From NCBI GenBank assembly GCA_038727095.1, contig JAVYWK010000001.1:1-64000 (forward strand): DNA of 64,000 nucleotides, read 5' to 3'. Under the pieces are notes generated by a model. That model made no database searches. It was not told where the DNA came from and saw only the letters and a list, made by a program, of their open reading frames with translations. The position numbers and the translations under genes are program-made. Shown one piece after another: positions 16,595 to 54,416 of this stretch; position 1 is the stretch's first letter; the number at the start of each line of letters is the position of its first letter. The stretch is from Thermofilaceae archaeon (GTDB lineage Archaea; Thermoproteota; Thermoprotei; Thermofilales; Thermofilaceae).

Positions 16595-17143
16595 GTGCGC
16601 GTGAAGGGCTGCATCTTCCTAGTGGCCCTCTCCGTAGTTGTGCCGCTCTCCTTCATAGCAGCTGCCGCCCTGCTGGCGGGCTGGTTTAACATCGTAAACA
16701 ACGCTTTGAGCGACTTGGGCCACGCGACGAGGAGCAACGTTGCCCCCCTCTTCAACTTCGGATTGAGCGCCGGCGGCGCCCTCCTCATCGTTGTCGGAGT
16801 AACCTGTGCCGCGGCGAAGTCGAAGCTCATCGGCTACACGCTCGCGGCCTCCGGCTTCATCCTCATCCTGATCGCGGTTTTTGACGAGGTTTACGGCCGA
16901 CTCCACTTCTACGTCTCGGTGGCCTTCTTCGTCTCCCTCGCAGTACTGCTAGCCGAGTACGCAGTCCTAAAGCGGGGAGTCAGAGCCGTGCTAGCGTCGC
17001 TCGCCATCATAGTCGGAGTCGCCTCGTGGGTGCTCCACCTGTACTACGGGATCCCGCCGGGAGCAGCGATACCGGAGCTAATCTCGATTGCTGTCGCATC
17101 GCCTTTCTACATCGACTTCGTGCTGGGTAAGGGCGGGGAGTAG
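16595..17143 (+). CDS. DUF998 family membrane protein
   Basis: NALSDLG, FNFGL, IAVFDEVYGRLHFYVS, AIPEL. Confidence 0.82.
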   Translation: MRVKGCIFLVALSVVVPLSFIAAAALLAGWFNIVNNALSDLGHATRSNVAPLFNFGLSAGGALLIVVGVTCAAAKSKLIGYTLAASGFILILIAVFDEVYGRLHFYVSVAFFVSLAVLLAEYAVLKRGVRAVLASLAIIVGVASWVLHLYYGIPPGAAIPELISIAVASPFYIDFVLGKGGE

Positions 17144-17220
17144 CTCAGCTTATCTTCCGAGGTTGCGGGTCCACCCCCGGAGCAGCAACTGTTTATTAGC
17201 GTTGAAGGCTTCTCAAAAGC

Positions 17221-18120
17221 GTGGATCTCAGCTGCGTCGCTGAGGAGCTTGGCGGTGAACTCTTCTCGTGCAAGAGGCTGGGTGGGCTTGCGAACGAAGC
17301 GTACCGACTGGAGGTTCGCGGGAGTGGGGGCATCGCACGCTACGCCGCTAAGGTCTACTTCGGCCGCGATGCGAAGCTAAAGGCTGTTAGGGAGTACTCC
17401 CTCTACGCTGTCGCCCCCTCCTTTGGGCTGGGGGCGCCCAAGGTTGTCCTCAAGGACTTCGAGGGGCGCTTAGTAGGCCGCCCCCTCCTTGCGTGGGAGT
17501 GGATCGAGGGGGTGAAATGTGAGGATCAATTGAAGAAAACCCTGTTGACGGCTAGGCTCGTTGGGGCGGGGCTAGCCCGCTTCCACGAAATCCCGTACGA
17601 GAGGGTGAACGTTGCTCCGCCCGCGGAGGGGTTCTGGATGAGGGAGATCGAAAGCGTCAGGTTCCTGCTAAAGCTCTCCAACCTGAGCGTCCACCCCAGC
17701 CTTCTGCAGCCTCCGGAATCGGAGGAGGTGGCGCTACTTCACGGCGACTACAACCCGGGGAACCTGCTCCTCTCGAGTGGGAAGCTCTACGTGATGGACG
17801 CGGAGAGCTTGAGCGCGGGCGACCCGCTCTACGACGTCGCGTACGCCTTCGCCTTCCTCTGGGCGAGCAACGTTCGCGCCGCTGAGAAGTTCGCAGCGGA
17901 GTACTTCGCTCTAACGGGGCGGGAGACGAGGGGGTTGGCCAAGCTGGTTAGGCTGGTGGCCCTGAAGCTGTACTGCATGCTATCCTTCCCCGCGATGAGG
18001 AGCTACTTGCGTTGGAAGCTGGGCGCCGCATACCCGCTCGCGGAGCTGCTCTTCCTCAACAGGTTCAGGAAGCTGCTCCTCGAGCTTTCACAGCCGGGCG
18101 GGCTGCTGGTCAGCGAGTAG
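17221..18120 (+). CDS. Aminoglycoside/choline phosphotransferase (APH) family kinase
   Basis: LLHGDYNPGNLL, VMDAE, GDPLYDVA. Confidence 0.85.
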   Translation: MDLSCVAEELGGELFSCKRLGGLANEAYRLEVRGSGGIARYAAKVYFGRDAKLKAVREYSLYAVAPSFGLGAPKVVLKDFEGRLVGRPLLAWEWIEGVKCEDQLKKTLLTARLVGAGLARFHEIPYERVNVAPPAEGFWMREIESVRFLLKLSNLSVHPSLLQPPESEEVALLHGDYNPGNLLLSSGKLYVMDAESLSAGDPLYDVAYAFAFLWASNVRAAEKFAAEYFALTGRETRGLAKLVRLVALKLYCMLSFPAMRSYLRWKLGAAYPLAELLFLNRFRKLLLELSQPGGLLVSE

Positions 18121-18193
18121 CACGTTGGCTGGCCGCTAGAGGGAGTTGGATTGGGGTAAAGCTTACCCGGCTTGAGAGGGGTGGTTCCGCGCA

Positions 18194-19006
18194 GTGATCG
18201 AGAGGGTTGCGGAAATACTCGCGCGCTCGCTGAAGCTCAACTTCAAGCTGGAGGGTGGGTACGCGCTGCTGTTCGACGGGGCTGGCCGCATCCAGCTCTA
18301 CCTGTTCGAGAGGGAGCCCTTGCCCCGGCTCGGCCTCTTCGGCTACTACGCCGCGCACTTCATCGAACTCTGGGAGGGGGAGAGGCTGCTTGAAGGCTAC
18401 AGGGAGGTTGTCGAAGGCGATGCGCTCATGGCTGCAGCAGCCAGAGTGCTTCTGGGCGTCGGCGAGCCGGTCGTAAGGGTTGGCAGAGTGAGGGGCAAGT
18501 ACGGCGACCCCCACGTCTCGAAGTTCTTCGAGACGAGGAGGTTTCAGATCATCAGGGAGGTCGTGCAGGTTGGGACCGCTTCAATCCCACCCCGCATCGC
18601 ACCCGGGGATTACGCGTGGGACCTGCCGGATGAGGTCTGCAGCGGCGGCGTAGTCGGCTACCTCGACGGCTTCTGGGTAACCTTCACCAGCGGGAGGATC
18701 GGCTTCGTGAGGGGTTTGAGCGTCTACAGGGATTGCAGGATGGTAGCCGGACGGGCAGAGTACGAGTCGATGGGCGACCTGGAGGAGCGCGAAATCAGCG
18801 GCTTAAGGCTCAAGAAGATCCCCTACCGGCTCGCCGTCTCCCTCCTCAACGCCAGCGAAGCTGAGTGCTGCGGATTCAAGGTCACGGAGATGTACGGGCC
18901 AGATAGCTGGGAAACCCCATTGTGGAAGAAGGTGTACGACCGATTCGAGGTCGTCCTCCGCCCCCTACTCTTCCAGCGGTGCGAAGAATCCTGCACAAAT
19001 GCTTGA
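18194..19006 (+). CDS. Hypothetical protein
   Basis: 270-aa ORF with upstream GAGGGTG; no recognised motif. Confidence 0.65.
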   Translation: MIERVAEILARSLKLNFKLEGGYALLFDGAGRIQLYLFEREPLPRLGLFGYYAAHFIELWEGERLLEGYREVVEGDALMAAAARVLLGVGEPVVRVGRVRGKYGDPHVSKFFETRRFQIIREVVQVGTASIPPRIAPGDYAWDLPDEVCSGGVVGYLDGFWVTFTSGRIGFVRGLSVYRDCRMVAGRAEYESMGDLEEREISGLRLKKIPYRLAVSLLNASEAECCGFKVTEMYGPDSWETPLWKKVYDRFEVVLRPLLFQRCEESCTNA

Positions 19007-19010
19007 TTAA

Positions 19011-19231
19011 GCGGGAGCGCGCTCTCGTGTGAGAAGAGGCCATCGCAGCACCCCGAGCAGGGCGCTGCCGCAAGATGTACGGGGTTCGGGCCTTTTAGGC
19101 CCTTGGGGCCTCCCGACTCGAGCCCCATTTCATCGGGGCCCATGTCACCGTTCACCAGCCCCCGCACAGGGTAACCCCACCCCGCGGCTGAACCGCGGGG
19201 GAAACCCCCGTGGGCCGCGCTCACGCGGCCC
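19011..19231 (-). ncRNA. Candidate structured non-coding RNA of unknown family
   Basis: Series of perfect or near-perfect GC hairpins downstream of a BRE/TATA-like AAAACTTTAAAG (19264-19253); no credible ORF; strand and ends inferred. Confidence 0.45.
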
Positions 19232-19479
19232 GGTTTTCCTGACCGGGTTCGGCTTTAAAGTTTTACCTCCACCCGCAGCTCCGGGAGCCCCCAGAGCAGA
19301 GGGAGGTGGCTAGGCGGGGAGCCGAGCGGTTAGGGCCGAAGGGAGGAGAGGGGTGGAGAGCCCTCGAACCTGATGCAGAGGCCACCCAGCGCCGATAGAT
19401 GTACGGCTTTCCCCTTGAGACCTTTGAGGAGACCCTTCGTTTCGCGGGGTGAAAATGGAGAGGTAGGGGGAGGCTATCG

Positions 19480-19743
19480 ATGGGCTACGCGAGCCTCGCA
19501 GTGAGGGGGAAGCCGTACATCGGCGCGTGCGGCCGCTTTTTGTTTGCGCTGCTGAGGGGCTGCGGGGAGGAGCTCAGGGTGACCCTGAGGTTGAGCAGCA
19601 TGGCGGGGGCTTTGGAGGCTTTCGAAATGGCTGGGTTGAAGCTGGGGAGCATTATATTTACGCGTGCCGGGGAGGGGCACACAGCGCTGGTCCAGCTGAG
19701 GGGAGGCTGGCTGAGAGCTTATGTAGCCGCGGTAGCCGAGTAA
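19480..19743 (+). CDS. Small hypothetical protein or gene remnant
   Basis: 87 aa with GGAGG upstream; its 5' part has an inverted copy at 19389-19415. Confidence 0.35.
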   Translation: MGYASLAVRGKPYIGACGRFLFALLRGCGEELRVTLRLSSMAGALEAFEMAGLKLGSIIFTRAGEGHTALVQLRGGWLRAYVAAVAE

Positions 19744-19977
19744 ACCCGGAGAACAGGGCGCCTTTTCATTCCATTTTTGTTTCCCTTTTCCCGCTGACCC
19801 CCCAGGCGTTGGTGTGAAGCGATTGGGCGAGGGCGTGGGAGCAGAGGGGGTCTGGTTGAGGAAGATGGAAAGTAGAGATGAGGCGACGGAAACCCAGGCT
19901 GGAACAATGGGTTTCGCGAGCCCGATGCGGTCCCAACCCCTTAGTACTTGCTTGACCTACGCTTCCCCTGCGCACCT

Positions 19978-21111
19978 TCACTTGATTGGGTACCTCCCGT
20001 ACTTCCTGCCGACTTCAAGCATCGCCAGGTAGTTCTCCAATTTCACGTAGTTTGCCACGCTGTTACCGCAGCCCAGCGCGTAGCCGCCACCGGGAGCGCA
20101 CTTCCGGAGTATCTCCTTGACGTACTCGACGAAGAGGTCCGTGGGCATCCTTGCGAGCTTGTCCATGTCCACCCCGCCCAGCAGCGCGATTCTATCGCCG
20201 TAGAGCCCCTTGTACTCGGTCACCGGGTAGGCAGCATCCTCGAAGGAGTGCTTCGCGTCGATCCCCACGTAGCTGATCAAGTCCTCCATGATCACCTTCA
20301 GGTTGCCGCAGGAGTGGAGGATGAAGGGCTTCCCGCAGCGGTGCACGGCGTCCGCGCACCTCTTCTGCCACGGGAAGACCAGCTCCCTGAGGGCGTTGGG
20401 CGAGATCATTGGGCCGCTCCTGAAACCCATGTCGTCGCCCATCGTCAGGGCACCGACCCTCTCGCACTCAGCGGCCGCCTTGCAGAGCTCCTCGAGAACG
20501 CGGCCCACCCTCTCGAAGAGCTCCCTCACGAAAGCACGATCCCTGTGGAGAGCCCTCGAGAACGGTGCAAAGCCCATCAGCCAAGTCACATTCTCAAAGA
20601 CGCCGCCGGGGGTCAACGGGATGAAGGCCATTCGCTCCGGCAGCAGTCTGGAGACGGCGCCGTAGTAGACCATGAACGTCTCAACAACCGCGCTCGGATC
20701 GGGCCACGGGTAGTTCTCCAGGTCCTCGCGCTTCTCTATCGTACCTCTGAACTCGTCGTTCCAGGCCCTCTTGGGCCTGCGGAGCGGCGCGGTGTCGTCG
20801 GCCAGCAGCACGTTAGTCCGCGGGAAGGGGGTCGGTATGGACAGCGTGATGTAGTCGTAGCCTAAACCACCGTAGAAGCGCACCAGCACCCTCACGTTGT
20901 GCTCAACCGTTCTCAAGAGCTCGGCCCTTCCATCGGGAGAGCTCAACTCGGATACTGCCTCGTGGACGCTCGCTGGCCCCGGCGCCAGTTTTTCACCCGT
21001 TAGAGCCTCGACAACCTCCGCGTCGGCGTAGAGGTCGTAAAAGGGGACCCTATCGGGAGGCTCCTCGAGGTGAAGCACCGAGAGAAGCCGCTCAAAGTTC
21101 GACTCCGACAC
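19978..21111 (-). CDS. Uroporphyrinogen decarboxylase/MtaA-like family protein
   Basis: PDRVP, GDDMGF, ILHSCGN, LLGGVD, GGGYALGCGNSV. Confidence 0.85.
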   Translation of the reverse strand: MSESNFERLLSVLHLEEPPDRVPFYDLYADAEVVEALTGEKLAPGPASVHEAVSELSSPDGRAELLRTVEHNVRVLVRFYGGLGYDYITLSIPTPFPRTNVLLADDTAPLRRPKRAWNDEFRGTIEKREDLENYPWPDPSAVVETFMVYYGAVSRLLPERMAFIPLTPGGVFENVTWLMGFAPFSRALHRDRAFVRELFERVGRVLEELCKAAAECERVGALTMGDDMGFRSGPMISPNALRELVFPWQKRCADAVHRCGKPFILHSCGNLKVIMEDLISYVGIDAKHSFEDAAYPVTEYKGLYGDRIALLGGVDMDKLARMPTDLFVEYVKEILRKCAPGGGYALGCGNSVANYVKLENYLAMLEVGRKYGRYPIK

Positions 21112-21164
21112 GAATTAGATTGGGGGAGCACAGTTAAAACCCTTTGGTGGGATCCCCAAGCTGA

Positions 21165-21214
21165 GGGATGAGGCACGTCGAGCTGAACCGTGATGCGATT
21201 GGTCTTTGCTGACA
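21165..21214 (+). ncRNA. Possible C/D box sRNA with degenerate C box
   Basis: ATGAGGC 21168-74, CTGA 21183-86, GTGATGC 21190-96, 12-nt guide GATTGGTCTTTG, CTGA 21209-12. Confidence 0.55.
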
Positions 21215-21245
21215 AACGCTCGCGCTTGAAGGTCTGCGCTTGGGC

Positions 21246-21515
21246 TCACTCGAGCTTTACCGCATCACTCAACTTGCTCGCTGCTACGCTCAGCGTAACG
21301 TAGTCGCCGACCCCCTTGACGTGGGTCAGGCTCACCGAGCCTCGCGGTCTAAGGGAAAAGCGTACCCCGATCGCTCTGGCGGCGTCACGGCTTAAGCGGA
21401 GGACGAGCTTCGTGACAACCCAGTTCTCGATCTCGAGGTCCTCGATCCGGCCGATGCTCACCCCGTCCTCCGTGACAACCTCCTTCCCTATTATGTTCTT
21501 CACCCGCACGATCAA
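21246..21515 (-). CDS. PRC-barrel domain protein
   Basis: IIGKEVVTEDGVSIGRIEDLEI...VKGVGDYV. Confidence 0.85.
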   Translation of the reverse strand: MIVRVKNIIGKEVVTEDGVSIGRIEDLEIENWVVTKLVLRLSRDAARAIGVRFSLRPRGSVSLTHVKGVGDYVTLSVAASKLSDAVKLE

Positions 21516-21573
21516 TCCGCCCGCCTACGAGAGGCCTTCTCAACGCTTAAAAGTTGCGCTGGGGAGGGGGCGC

Positions 21574-22827
21574 ATGCGAAGCTTGTTTAGCGATGCCAGG
21601 TACGCCTACGAGCTCGCCCTGCGCTTGTCCTCTGAGCCGCGCTTCACGGGGAGCGAGGGTGAAGCTAGGGCGCGCGAGCTGGTCGTGAGGGAGCTGTCCA
21701 GCATGGGCTACGACGTCAGGCTGGAGCCCTTCAAGGTGAAGGTGTACGAGATTCGGAGGGCGGAGCTGGAGGCCCTCGAGCCCGAGCGGCGCAGCGTTGA
21801 GTGCGCCGGTGTGGGCTTCAGCGGCGAGACGGGTGAGGAAGGGGTTGAAGGCGAGCTCGTCTACATCGAGGGGGGCGATCCGGCGCTCGTCCCTAGCTCC
21901 ACGGGCTGGATCGGTCTCGCCTCGGCGAGGCCCGACAAGGAGGGGTGGCGGAAGCTGGCCGGCAGGGCTTTGGGCCTCGTGATCGCCGAGGGCTCACCCC
22001 ACCGACAGCTGAGCCGGGTCGACGTGCCCCACGAGTGGAGGGAGAAGTTCGGCAACCTGCCCGCAGTCTACGTGAGGTACAGCGACGCGCTGAAGATGCT
22101 CGAGGCTAGGCGCGCGAGGCTCGTCCTGGTCCAGGAGTACAGGGAGGTGGAGGCATTCAACGTGGTTGCTGAGAGGCGGGGGTCGAAGTACCCGGATGAG
22201 GTCGTGTACGTGACGGCGCACCTCGACAGCGTTTACGGTGTGCGGGGCGCCGTTGACAACGCGGGCGGCTCGGCTCTCGCGGTAGCCATCGCGAGGGCCT
22301 TGAGCAACGTCCCCCTCAAGCGGACGCTCCGCTTCGTCCTCTTCAGCGGGGAGGAGCTTGGGCTGCGCGGCTCGCTGGCCCACGTCGAGGCGCGGAAGGA
22401 TGAGATGAGGAACGCCGTGCTCGTCGTGAACCTGGACGTCCACGGCGGGGCAATGGGGACGACTAGAGCGATCGTCACAGGCTCGAAGAGCCTGCGCCAT
22501 TCGATCGAGTTCCTCGCGAAGAAGCTGGGAGTAAAGGTGGAGGTGAGCGAGGACGTGATGTCGAGCGACAGCGCGAGCTTCGCGAGGTTGGGCGTCCCCT
22601 CAGTCAACGTGTTCCGGGCCAGCGGCGCCAACGCCGGTATGCACACGGTCGAGGACTCGCCCGAGCTGCTGCACCCCTCATCCTTCGAGCTCCCCGGCCT
22701 GCTCGCTCTCCACATCGTCAGGGAGGTGGCCGACGCTGAGGAGGTTCCGTTCGAGCGCGAGATACCGGAGGAGGTGAAGAGGAAGGTGGACGACTACTTC
22801 AGGAAGAGGCTCGGGATTTTCGAGTAA
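21574..22827 (+). CDS. M28 family aminopeptidase with PA-like domain
   Basis: RFTGSEGE, TAHLDSV, GAVDNAGG, FSGEELGLRGS, SSD, MHTVED; start placed at ATG 21574. Confidence 0.88.
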   Translation: MRSLFSDARYAYELALRLSSEPRFTGSEGEARARELVVRELSSMGYDVRLEPFKVKVYEIRRAELEALEPERRSVECAGVGFSGETGEEGVEGELVYIEGGDPALVPSSTGWIGLASARPDKEGWRKLAGRALGLVIAEGSPHRQLSRVDVPHEWREKFGNLPAVYVRYSDALKMLEARRARLVLVQEYREVEAFNVVAERRGSKYPDEVVYVTAHLDSVYGVRGAVDNAGGSALAVAIARALSNVPLKRTLRFVLFSGEELGLRGSLAHVEARKDEMRNAVLVVNLDVHGGAMGTTRAIVTGSKSLRHSIEFLAKKLGVKVEVSEDVMSSDSASFARLGVPSVNVFRASGANAGMHTVEDSPELLHPSSFELPGLLALHIVREVADAEEVPFEREIPEEVKRKVDDYFRKRLGIFE

Positions 22828-24706
22828 GCTTAAACAGCAGAGCCGCGGCAGCTAGCCCGGCGCCCACCGCAGCGGTTAGCACCAGCAGGGCGGTGAACCC
22901 CTCCCCCTTCCTCGCCTGAACCTGGGGCCCTCTGGCGGAAGACGCTTCAACCTCGATGGTAGCCTCTTCGGTCGCCAGCTGGCCCGAAGCTGACCACGCC
23001 TCAACCCTCACCTTCGCTAGCCTTCCAGCTGCGACACCCCGCAGCTCGACTCTCTCGCCGGGGCCGATGTAGGGGAGGAAGGCAGCGTGAGAAGTGCGGT
23101 TGATCGGCAGCGTGTAAGCGTGGAAGCCCGCTGGCTCCACCGCTACCCCCACCGACGCGTTGACCACGGTCAACCGGGCGGCCACGATCGGCTCCTCCTC
23201 AACGTTGCTGACGGCCACAACGATGGCATTGCCCTCCCCCGCCAACTCGACTCTAACCCTTGGGGCCTTCCCGATGGGCGGCTCCCAGCCCTTGTAGCGG
23301 GCCACGTACTCCCTCGTCATGCGGAGGTACTGGAAGCCGTACTCCCTGCTCGGCTCGATCTCCGTCCCCTCGTGCCACTCGTTCCACGAGCAGATGAGGA
23401 TCATGTCGGGCTCGCTCGCGATCGCCGCCTCCCACGTCCGCCTGTAATAACCGCCCTCCTCCCTCGCGACGTAGGCGCCGGGCCTTCGGATCTTCCTGTC
23501 GTCGTAGCCTGGGTTGACGGTTGCAGCCCAGAGCTTCCTCACAGCCGGGCCCTCCCCCACGCTGATGAAGGACTTGACGAGCCTCGACTGCTCCGCGTAC
23601 GTGGCCGCGTGGTCCCTTACCCAAATCGGGTTGTACGTGTGCAGCCCGTCGAAGACGGTCAGGAAAGCCGTGTTGAAAGTGTCTGCGATCCAGATCGCCT
23701 TCACGCCGGCAGACTCCTCCGCCCTCCTTAAAACCCCCCGCCAGAACTCGGGGTCTCTCGAGTAGGCTTCAACGGCGTACACGAAGACGACCGGCCTACC
23801 CTCGATCTTGAGGAAGGCCGGGTGCTTCGAGTACTTGCTGAGGACGTAGGAGAGCTCCCTCGCGACTTGTTCGGCCGTCATCTCGCGCACCGACTCGTAG
23901 TAAATGGTGAGGTTGAACCCAGCCTCCCCCGCCACCTCAAGCATGCGAGAGAACGCCTCGTCCTCGAAGCTGCCAGGGCCCCACCACGATACGATGAAGC
24001 CGTCGATCCCCGCGGCCTTTGCCATCTCGATGTGGGATTTGACGAGCCTCGCATCCCACGAGTCGTAAGGCCCCAGCAGCGGGAAGTTCGTCGCCGAGCC
24101 GATCTCCGCGTAGGAGACCCTCTCCCAGTGGAACCAGCGTCGCGACGCTCCCTGAGGGTTCCCGTACCAGGGGTAGTAGAAGGCGAGCACAAGCCTGGGT
24201 GCTCGCAGCTCCCTCACCTCCACCGCGACCGCCTGCGCTCCGAGGAGAGCGGACTTCGGCAGCAGCGAGCTCCTGGGATTAACGCCGGCGCTGCCGGGCA
24301 CGACGCCGGTGTTGGTGAAGCTCCACACCAGCCTCTCCTCGCCCCCCACGATCGCGAGCACGCGGATCGTCGTGTACTCGAGATCCCCCTTCGCGACAGT
24401 CACGTTCACCGCGTCGTTCGTAAACACGAGCCAGCCCTCAACCCTGACCTTGACGAGTGTCGTGTCGTACTGCCTCTTCCCAACGTGGATCGAAGAACCC
24501 GCAGCTGTAACCCTCAGGCCGGGCGCTCGCTCGCCCTCTACGATGGAGAAGCTCAGCGGGGTGAAGCCCGGTACCGTCACTGTCGTCCAATCGGACTTCG
24601 TCTCAACCTCGACAACGACCCTGAACGCTGTTACGCCGTTGGATTCGGTTAGGCTGGCCACCAGCGCGAGAAAGGCGAGAACGGTGATAACTTTTGCGGC
24701 ACGCAT
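22799..24706 (-). CDS. Membrane-anchored glycoside hydrolase family 99/71-like (endo-alpha-mannosidase-like)
   Basis: AFYYPWY, PLLGPYDS, GIDGFIVSWW, PGYDD, SWNEWHEGTEIEP; signal peptide and C-terminal TM helix. Confidence 0.85.
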   Translation of the reverse strand: MRAAKVITVLAFLALVASLTESNGVTAFRVVVEVETKSDWTTVTVPGFTPLSFSIVEGERAPGLRVTAAGSSIHVGKRQYDTTLVKVRVEGWLVFTNDAVNVTVAKGDLEYTTIRVLAIVGGEERLVWSFTNTGVVPGSAGVNPRSSLLPKSALLGAQAVAVEVRELRAPRLVLAFYYPWYGNPQGASRRWFHWERVSYAEIGSATNFPLLGPYDSWDARLVKSHIEMAKAAGIDGFIVSWWGPGSFEDEAFSRMLEVAGEAGFNLTIYYESVREMTAEQVARELSYVLSKYSKHPAFLKIEGRPVVFVYAVEAYSRDPEFWRGVLRRAEESAGVKAIWIADTFNTAFLTVFDGLHTYNPIWVRDHAATYAEQSRLVKSFISVGEGPAVRKLWAATVNPGYDDRKIRRPGAYVAREEGGYYRRTWEAAIASEPDMILICSWNEWHEGTEIEPSREYGFQYLRMTREYVARYKGWEPPIGKAPRVRVELAGEGNAIVVAVSNVEEEPIVAARLTVVNASVGVAVEPAGFHAYTLPINRTSHAAFLPYIGPGERVELRGVAAGRLAKVRVEAWSASGQLATEEATIEVEASSARGPQVQARKGEGFTALLVLTAAVGAGLAAAALLFKLTRKSRASS

Positions 24707-54304: not shown

Positions 54305-54416
54305 GGGGCCGTAGTCCAGCTTGGTAGGATGCGCGGCTCGGGAGGTTTAGTCTCGGGATCCCGCGTAGGTTGAGCGCCGCGGAGGGACCCGGGTTCAAGT
54401 CCCGGCGGCCCCACCA
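54305..54416 (+). tRNA. tRNA-Pro(CGG) with two introns (37/38: 54343-54359; 44/45: 54367-54384) and encoded CCA
   Basis: Removing both introns gives a canonical cloverleaf GGGGCCG...CGCGG-CTCGGGC-CCGCG-TGGAC-CCGGG-TTCAAGT-CCCGG-CGGCCCC-A-CCA; both junctions fold as bulge-helix-bulge. Confidence 0.9.

Follow-up and report, generated by a model that had tools for sequence, protein, structure and literature searches.

A hairpin tract in a Thermofilaceae genome is very probably the right-end omega-RNA module of a tnpB-only transposable element

Introduction

The omega RNA (reRNA) of TnpB systems is described as deriving from the 3′ end of tnpB together with the right end of the transposon, its guide being taken from the flanking DNA (PMC10097598). 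A scaffold lying 3′ of tnpB and running to the end of the element has the defining geometry of a TnpB omega RNA. For archaeal SisTnpB1, this arrangement of tnpB and omega RNA is reported as experimentally demonstrated (PMC10640517). Gene-less PATE-like elements are said to 'often encode omega RNAs', with TnpB needed in trans (PMC10055086).

Here, we analyzed an intergenic hairpin tract (19011–19264) in a 64,000-nt (64-kb) stretch of a Thermofilaceae genome (G000), hereafter the window. A preliminary description had taken the tract for an uncharacterised archaeal ncRNA, with a non-autonomous mobile-element relic as the alternative. Our analysis indicates that it is very probably the right-end omega-RNA module of an IS200/IS605-superfamily, tnpB-only (IS1341-like) element. 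This identity rests on the tnpB gene directly upstream in an intact relative, together with a sharp terminus, multiple copies and an empty site. The same evidence removes the uncharacterised class and shows the mobile-element alternative to have been right on origin.

The locus resembles the omega RNA of ISDra2 from Deinococcus radiodurans, as presented in PMC8612924 and PMC10097598, in several respects: the RNA is encoded on the tnpB strand, at or immediately behind the gene's 3′ end, the multi-stem scaffold of little over 100 nt ends at the right end with the flank as guide, and AACCCC, with which the scaffold ends, has a complementary GGGGUU upstream, as a pseudoknot like that of ISDra2 would require. 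It differs from the RNA in those accounts in showing no detectable sequence similarity and having no Rfam family for its scaffold, in a scaffold that begins after the stop codon in the closest copies, with little ORF overlap, and in the complete lack of tnpB in the window. With the PATE-like elements of Geobacillus stearothermophilus, as characterized by Meers et al. (PMC10055086), it shares short length, the loss of nuclease and transposase genes with retention of the omega-RNA end, a need for TnpB and transposase in trans, and presence or absence between close relatives. Unlike the elements portrayed there, it is chimeric, its right end and its far end (with a small broken ORF) coming from two TnpB families, and searches of the window's genome found neither a cognate TnpB nor a Y1 TnpA. 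Sulfolobus islandicus SisTnpB1 (PMC10640517) and the haloarchaeal and Sulfolobales omega RNAs (PMC12558985) are comparable as archaeal, tnpB-only and thermophile-compatible systems, in which these reports place the omega RNA gene at the 3′ end of tnpB with a conserved RE and a variable guide. In contrast to them, the present clade is divergent and GC-rich, extends over Thermofilaceae and neighbouring families, and scores below the NCBIfam cut-off.

Results

Structure of the hairpin tract

A check of the sequence confirmed the four hairpin groups of the preliminary description, all on the minus strand at the expected places and followed by a short terminal segment:

19231–19212, minus: hairpin group 1 (helix H1), GGGCCGCG-UGAG-CGCGGCCC, read from the sequence
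19209–19180, minus: hairpin group 2, GGGGG-TTT-CCCCC / CCGCGG-TTCAG-CCGCGG block, read from the sequence
19141–19120, minus: hairpin group 3 (P5), GGGCCCC-GATGAAAT-GGGGCTC, read from the sequence
19102–19088, minus: hairpin group 4 (P6), GGGCCT-AAA-AGGCCC, read from the sequence
19087–19081, minus: GAACCCC, directly 3′ of P6

The group 2 block is present as described, but its two inner hairpins compete for two C residues, so that only one can be complete at a time. The sequences of relatives point to a single 8-bp helix, CCCCGCGG-UUCAG-CCGCGGGG (19200–19180), which is P2. The 254-nt tract folds to −140.5 kcal/mol on the minus strand (z −4.34, none of 200 shuffles as stable) and to −131.3 kcal/mol on the plus strand (z −4.05). 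The span originally given, 19011–19264, is too wide, as 19011–19071 is ordinary flank that is conserved in the sister genome G002. The conserved unit itself covers 19081–19235, or 19081–19311 when the tnpB remnant described below is included. Its main parts, beyond the hairpins listed above, are:

19081–19235, minus: putative omega-RNA (reRNA) scaffold core, covariance model (CM) match of 150–154 bits; its 3′ end, 19081, is the right end of the element
19211–19206 with 19171–19166, minus: P1, enclosing P2 and the conserved GGGGUU (19178–19173)
19162–19158 / 19109–19105, minus: P3, in the 3′ domain (19105–19162)
19150–19147 / 19117–19114, minus: P4, in the 3′ domain
19134–19127, minus: P5 loop GAUGAAAU, conserved, in the 3′ domain

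The structure of this minus-strand RNA module is evolutionarily conserved. In an alignment of 22 sequences fitted to model R1, a procedure that inflates the pairing percentages in the model's favour, 89.7% of cells were paired, against 32–57% when the partners were slid by 1–3 columns, and 23 of 36 pairs had changed on both sides. Shuffles never reached the observed values in four of five measures (0/500), and did so in 12 of 500 cases for further pair types. The refined model (H1 and P1–P6), again with a model-fitted alignment and the same inflation, gave 87% paired cells compared with 36–52% for slid partners (0/500 shuffles as high), compensatory changes at 28 of 43 pairs, and a covariation of 0.329 against at most 0.115 after sliding. 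The slid controls and the compensatory changes in P3–P6 are stronger evidence than the pairing percentages.

Considered helix by helix, all seven pairs of H1 change on both sides, with 73% of cells paired and the helix lost in two relic copies; P1 is 85% paired with three compensatory pairs, and P2, present in 10 sequences, is 91% paired there and has two compensatory pairs. Helices 4–6 (P3–P5) are 87–94% paired, 11 of their 16 pairs having changed on both sides, and five of the six pairs of P6 (helix 7) are compensatory, for example GGGUU/AACCC in copy C44. The window copy forms every one of the 43 model pairs (39 Watson-Crick, 4 G-U). Among the single-stranded parts of the scaffold, none is more conserved than the GAUGAA loop. 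Read in the tnpB sense, which is the window's minus strand, the alignment has 75 G-U cells against 36 A-C cells, which favours this strand. In addition, GGGGUU (19178–19173) is complementary to AACCCC (19086–19081); both are invariant in the close copies and align ambiguously in distant ones, and by analogy with the ISDra2 omega RNA they could form a candidate pseudoknot next to the guide.

Copies, shared terminus and empty site

BLAST located three copies of the scaffold core in G000, namely the window copy, C44 (91%) and C10 (83%). Searching at the DNA level found the core in three of the 41 genomes of the relatives set (G000, its genus-mate G002 and G020, from another genus), and the covariance model recovered the same three among 23 family genomes. 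Nine copies, oriented alike, all start at the position equivalent to 19081, with plus-strand GGGGTTCGGG (GGGGTTC...), and share the scaffold terminus ...CGAACCCC. Their flanks are unrelated, except in one orthologous pair. A comparison of rates in an orthologous relic pair, C44 and G002:C73, gave ~95% identity for relic and flank alike and so no difference between them. Three of the G002 copies are located at contig ends.

Comparison with G002 delimits the inserted DNA, which has the following components:

19072–19893: insertion relative to sister genome G002, 822 nt (~820 bp), a chimeric gene-poor mini-element
19265–19311, minus: tnpB remnant, the last ~15 codons (~47 nt), aligned by MAFFT with ...FWELPEVRLEV...
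19355–19893, plus: module B, the far-end module of a second TnpB-like family, with nine further copies in G000

Contig G002:C43 is collinear with the window over 17000–19071 (98.4% identity) and 19894–23000 (98.3%), and has 15 nt (L024 2858–2872) where the window has 822 nt. A metatranscriptome contig from a third, ~95%-alike organism joins the flanks as in G002, with the insertion absent. These collinear flanks and the join in the relative's transcript contig show that the tract is one end of an ~820-bp insertion, and the empty site places its right boundary within 9 nt of 19081. Two other genomes of the genus do not preserve synteny around the insertion, which leaves G002 as the one genome with an empty site.

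More than a clean insertion separates the two sites. In the filled site, 14 nt present in G002 (GGATCATTCGGCGC) have been replaced, and AAGATGTAC (19072–19080), 9 nt long, is part of neither the flank nor the repeat. No terminal inverted repeats join the two ends of 19072–19893, no target-site duplication flanks this interval, and the sole long inverted repeat is internal; a classical MITE was rejected on these grounds, and the lack of both features agrees with an IS200/IS605-superfamily, tnpB-only element. The 10 nt at the right-end junction (19073–19082) are identical to the small-ORF start region of module B (19397–19406). This identity may have been left behind when the two modules were joined, or may be due to chance, since the 866 nt analyzed contain a second exact 10-mer repeat. 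A target-site duplication of AGATGTAC around 19081–19397 was discarded because the homology of module B with a copy lacking the omega-RNA end (module A) reaches left to 19355.

The insertion lies between a 270-aa ORF (18194–19006, plus strand), for which Pfam gave no match, and a URO-D-family gene (19978–21111, minus strand; PF01208, 1.8e-17). These two neighbours are adjacent only in G000 and G002 among five genomes of the genus.

Linkage to tnpB in intact and diverged relatives

In a MAFFT alignment, three copies run upstream into an ORF ending ...CKRCGLTMDRQRLAAVNVWLRAVKKLGLKAELPPRFWGLPELKIEVKL*, and tblastn detected C-terminal pieces of tnpB upstream of other copies, of which C44 and L020 keep residues 342–403 and 358–403, respectively. 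The copy in G020 has an intact ORF of 403 aa (L021:4322–5533). Its product matches PF07282 (Cas12f1-like TNB domain) at 2.8e-12 and NF040570 (guided_TnpB) at 4.3e-17, the latter with 62.5 bits and so below the curated 100-bit NCBIfam cut-off. Matches in the PDB include the TnpB-like L79 / Fanzor2 protein (1e-4) and Cas12f, and ISDra2 TnpB at an E-value of 0.05, above the default cut-off. An alignment of seven TnpB homologues shows GWDxN, FEDL and DRQ..A..N, which we take to be the D-E-D motifs of RuvC, and two CxxC motifs, presumably of a zinc finger. These RuvC and zinc-finger features bear on the intact relative only, the window being without tnpB.

The scaffold of G020 begins 69 nt past the tnpB stop codon on the same strand and extends to the element boundary. 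The same arrangement was seen in the metagenome locus L134, where tnpB residues 234–403 (86% identity) lie directly upstream of a 131.5-bit CM match. A metagenome search with a 20-nt core pattern returned at least 120 stretches, and the 80 examined comprised 79 chance matches and one true copy.

The linkage extends to diverged families. Homologues of the 403-aa TnpB (E ≤ 1e-20) are present in 10 other genomes of the 120 in the class, and the CM built from the close copies gave a same-strand match in six of these 10, located −26 to +69 nt from the end of the tnpB match. Scores beside diverged tnpB genes were 47 bits in G051, 34 in G056, 32 in G057 and 20 in G035. In G050, the model matched all 10 loci of a tnpB family of 33–35% identity and none of the five loci of a more distant family. 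It gave no match in four of the 10 homologue-bearing genomes; two of the four have only a gene fragment without its 3′ end (at contig or locus ends), and two truly have none.

Two of the seven aligned TnpB homologues, from G051 and G038, carry NRQ in place of DRQ at the third RuvC motif; judging from this substitution, both may have lost nuclease activity while retaining the RNA. G051 has a 47-bit scaffold match. G020 also contains a diverged solo copy of the scaffold (G020:C2:4825–4984, L022/L035; 37–46 bits) with no tnpB nearby; it lies between the genes for aIF2-beta and EF-1-alpha, which are 256 nt apart.

State of the window copy

A tblastn search of G000 with the intact protein returned only residues 342–403, at C44. 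The NF040570 profile found no cognate tnpB in G000 or G002, with only a weak match to the other TnpB-like family in G000, and the Y1 TnpA profile (PF01797) had no match in G000; as this assembly is 92% complete and in 52 contigs, and as three G002 copies lie at contig ends, the absence of tnpB and Y1 is not proven. From these searches of a 92%-complete assembly, we infer that no TnpB matching the window copy is left in its genome, which would make the copy an orphan. It is a tnpB-less PATE-like relic and, if orphan, most likely a decaying one able to act only in trans; it may have no activity at all.

Module B is the far end of a ~3.1-kb repeat, present in three places, whose TnpB-like gene (~485 aa) belongs to a second family (tnpB2). 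Because module B belongs to this other family and is lacking in the intact G020 element, the window element is a chimera, with a far end that is only roughly defined. The same order of omega-RNA end (A) and module B (B) was found in G000:C10, which has an internal deletion, and in G002:C1.

Intact elements of this type carry tnpB followed on the same strand by the ~155-nt scaffold (H1, P1–P6), which stops at the last base of the transposon. According to the mechanism known from the literature, read-through into the flank would supply a guide of ~16–20 nt, and guide-loaded TnpB would cut the matching empty site beside the TAM, leading to retention of the element. In the window, the nuclease gene has been lost except for ~47 nt, and the RNA module is fused to the far-end module of the other family.

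Promoter-like box, transcription and guide

Two further features of the window copy bear on its possible activity:

19264–19253, minus: BRE/TATA-like box AAAACTTTAAAG; H1 begins, with its first G, 21 nt downstream
19061–19080, minus: would-be guide flank GUACAUCUUGCGGCAGCGCC, placed by analogy with known omega RNAs

The promoter-like box noticed in the preliminary description is real and forms a plausible archaeal promoter, being rare in the window and resembling the promoter of the SRP RNA gene. The motif AAANNTTTAAA, a pattern picked after the box had been seen, occurs once in the 64-kb window (0.06 expected), and five of 100 shuffles contained at least one occurrence. The SRP RNA gene of the same genome has a similar box, AAACATTTTAAG, ending 23 nt before its 5′ end. 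AAAACTTTAAAG replaces the stop-codon region of tnpB and is absent from all other copies. Judged from the position of the box, a transcription start near 19230 is plausible, and we infer that the window copy is still transcribed from it.

In three raw-read RNA runs, 1.6 kb of the locus was covered by 0, 0 and 2 reads, too few to be usable, and a fourth run, available as contigs, represents a different strain without the insertion. A 208-nt contig of this fourth run (depth 59) matches 19117–19148, with DNA carry-over possible; at most, it gives a hint of a relative's omega RNA. For the window's would-be guide, a search of the genome found no other site below 3 mismatches over 16 nt, and for the three would-be guides together, no second target below 2–3 mismatches over this length.

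The SRP RNA and RNase P RNA genes of G000 (G000:C7:27162–27935) are divergent neighbours separated by 143 nt. Each has a recognisable AT-rich promoter box, and together they provide this genome's reference ncRNA promoters.

Alternative explanations and significance

We weighed three other accounts of the tract. The least probable, to which we give practically no weight, is that it encodes an RNA of an established housekeeping or guide type (type-T RNase P, SRP RNA, H/ACA or C/D sRNA) that had gone unrecognised, as its size, GC-rich stacked hairpins, GAUGA-containing loop and two ACA triplets might suggest. At the gathering cut-off, Rfam placed no family in the tract, and the sole match at that level in the 64-kb window was a tRNA (54305–54413); a permissive scan of 18800–19500 (E ≤ 10) returned only noise, with a best E-value of 0.087. 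The RNase P RNA (162 bits) and SRP RNA (98 bits) of G000 lie side by side on contig C7, in keeping with the preliminary description, which had excluded both for the tract, and type-T RNase P was rejected because the RNaseP-T model matches only this known RNase P locus. The proposed H/ACA-like reading finds no support, with no H/ACA match above noise and the ACA triplets falling in a helix junction and in the flank. A known housekeeping RNA is also at odds with the multi-copy, patchy and tnpB-linked distribution of the element. H/ACA and C/D RNAs, an IS110 bridge RNA and a viral att site were all dropped because tnpB lies directly upstream in intact copies, and a DGR template or variable repeat was dropped on this ground alone.

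It is very unlikely, in our judgement, that the conserved feature acts at the DNA level only, as subterminal transposase-binding hairpins of a MITE or PATE end, with no functional RNA in any copy. The ends of IS200/IS605 elements do have subterminal hairpins, which are used on single-stranded DNA; here both strands fold well, and only 7 nt separate the terminal hairpin P6 from the element's end. Against this stand a conserved structure of ~150 nt and seven helices, far beyond one end hairpin, the excess of G-U over A-C cells (75 vs 36) on the tnpB-sense strand, and a homologous structure that stays directly 3′ of tnpB in families diverged to 15–49 bits, as known omega RNAs do. An account somewhat less remote, though still improbable, is that the window copy gained a promoter in place of the tnpB stop region and became an exapted, independently transcribed host ncRNA with a transposition-independent role. 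It would then yield a discrete RNA of ~170 nt, used in trans as a guide by a TnpB2-type protein, or by the host as an L7Ae-type RNP bound through the GAUGAA loop. Insertion-free flanks in the closest relative and in a second one mean that the element is no conserved host gene, and the account also faces the lack of second-site targets for the would-be guide and a CM search 3′ of the tnpB2 genes that returned noise (best 11 bits), leaving no scaffold common to both families. It does draw on the unique box at the former stop region, with its SRP-promoter-like spacing and its absence from other copies, on the 43 intact model pairs, on the strong conservation of the GAUGAA loop, and on the fusion of the RNA to a tnpB2-type far-end module in a genome with three to four tnpB2-type ORFs (~485 aa). 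Use of the window RNA by a TnpB2-type protein, if true, would amount to cross-family sharing of guide RNAs.

On the preferred reading, an omega-RNA module of a tnpB-only element, a false lead is removed, in that the tract does not represent a new class of archaeal ncRNA. The omega-RNA family itself is new, a known kind of RNA that falls outside Rfam coverage, and its structure, in the model-fitted alignment, is supported by covariation for a divergent clade of thermophilic archaeal TnpB. Its model helps to annotate similar unassigned structured RNAs in Thermoproteota, and the intact G020 element is, by its sequence, a candidate heat-stable compact RNA-guided nuclease. The window copy also illustrates a route of decay in which the guide-RNA end persists after the nuclease gene has gone, is recombined with an end from another family, and may land behind a promoter-like box. 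Such decayed ends are raw material from which domesticated guide RNAs could arise.

Module B and the tnpB2 family

Module B contains a small conserved ORF with the following position:

19480–19743, plus: small conserved ORF of module B, 87 aa; long form with ATG at 19399

The long form is broken by an in-frame TGA (19450–19452), at which three other copies read tryptophan. The encoded protein family (74–112 aa; copies L077–L083 in G000) has the consensus ...AEALEAF..AGL.PGS.AF....GR..L.QLRGGWLKAY... and gave no Pfam or NCBIfam match. Among 1.84 billion representative proteins, 26 matches at E ≤ 1e-3 were obtained, mostly short, and a word-based protein search with the small ORF found only itself. 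The protein may have an accessory or regulatory role in the element. The small ORF starts between the arms of an 18-nt inverted repeat (19398–19415 / 19504–19521; 94% complementary, 88 nt between the arms), and the start codon of the long form is overlapped by one of them.

The tnpB2 family was located at G000:C38:4416–7556, C3:56393–59526, C41:401–1870 and C3:12067–13794. It shows only sub-threshold PF07282 similarity, and the copies of the ~3.1-kb repeat are 82% identical. Upstream of tnpB2, the repeat has ~1 kb without any ORF common to the copies. By eye, the RuvC-II and RuvC-III motifs look altered (VLVDKPS and WNRDY), and tnpB2 could encode a relative of TnpB that is divergent or impaired as a nuclease and has its RNA encoded upstream.
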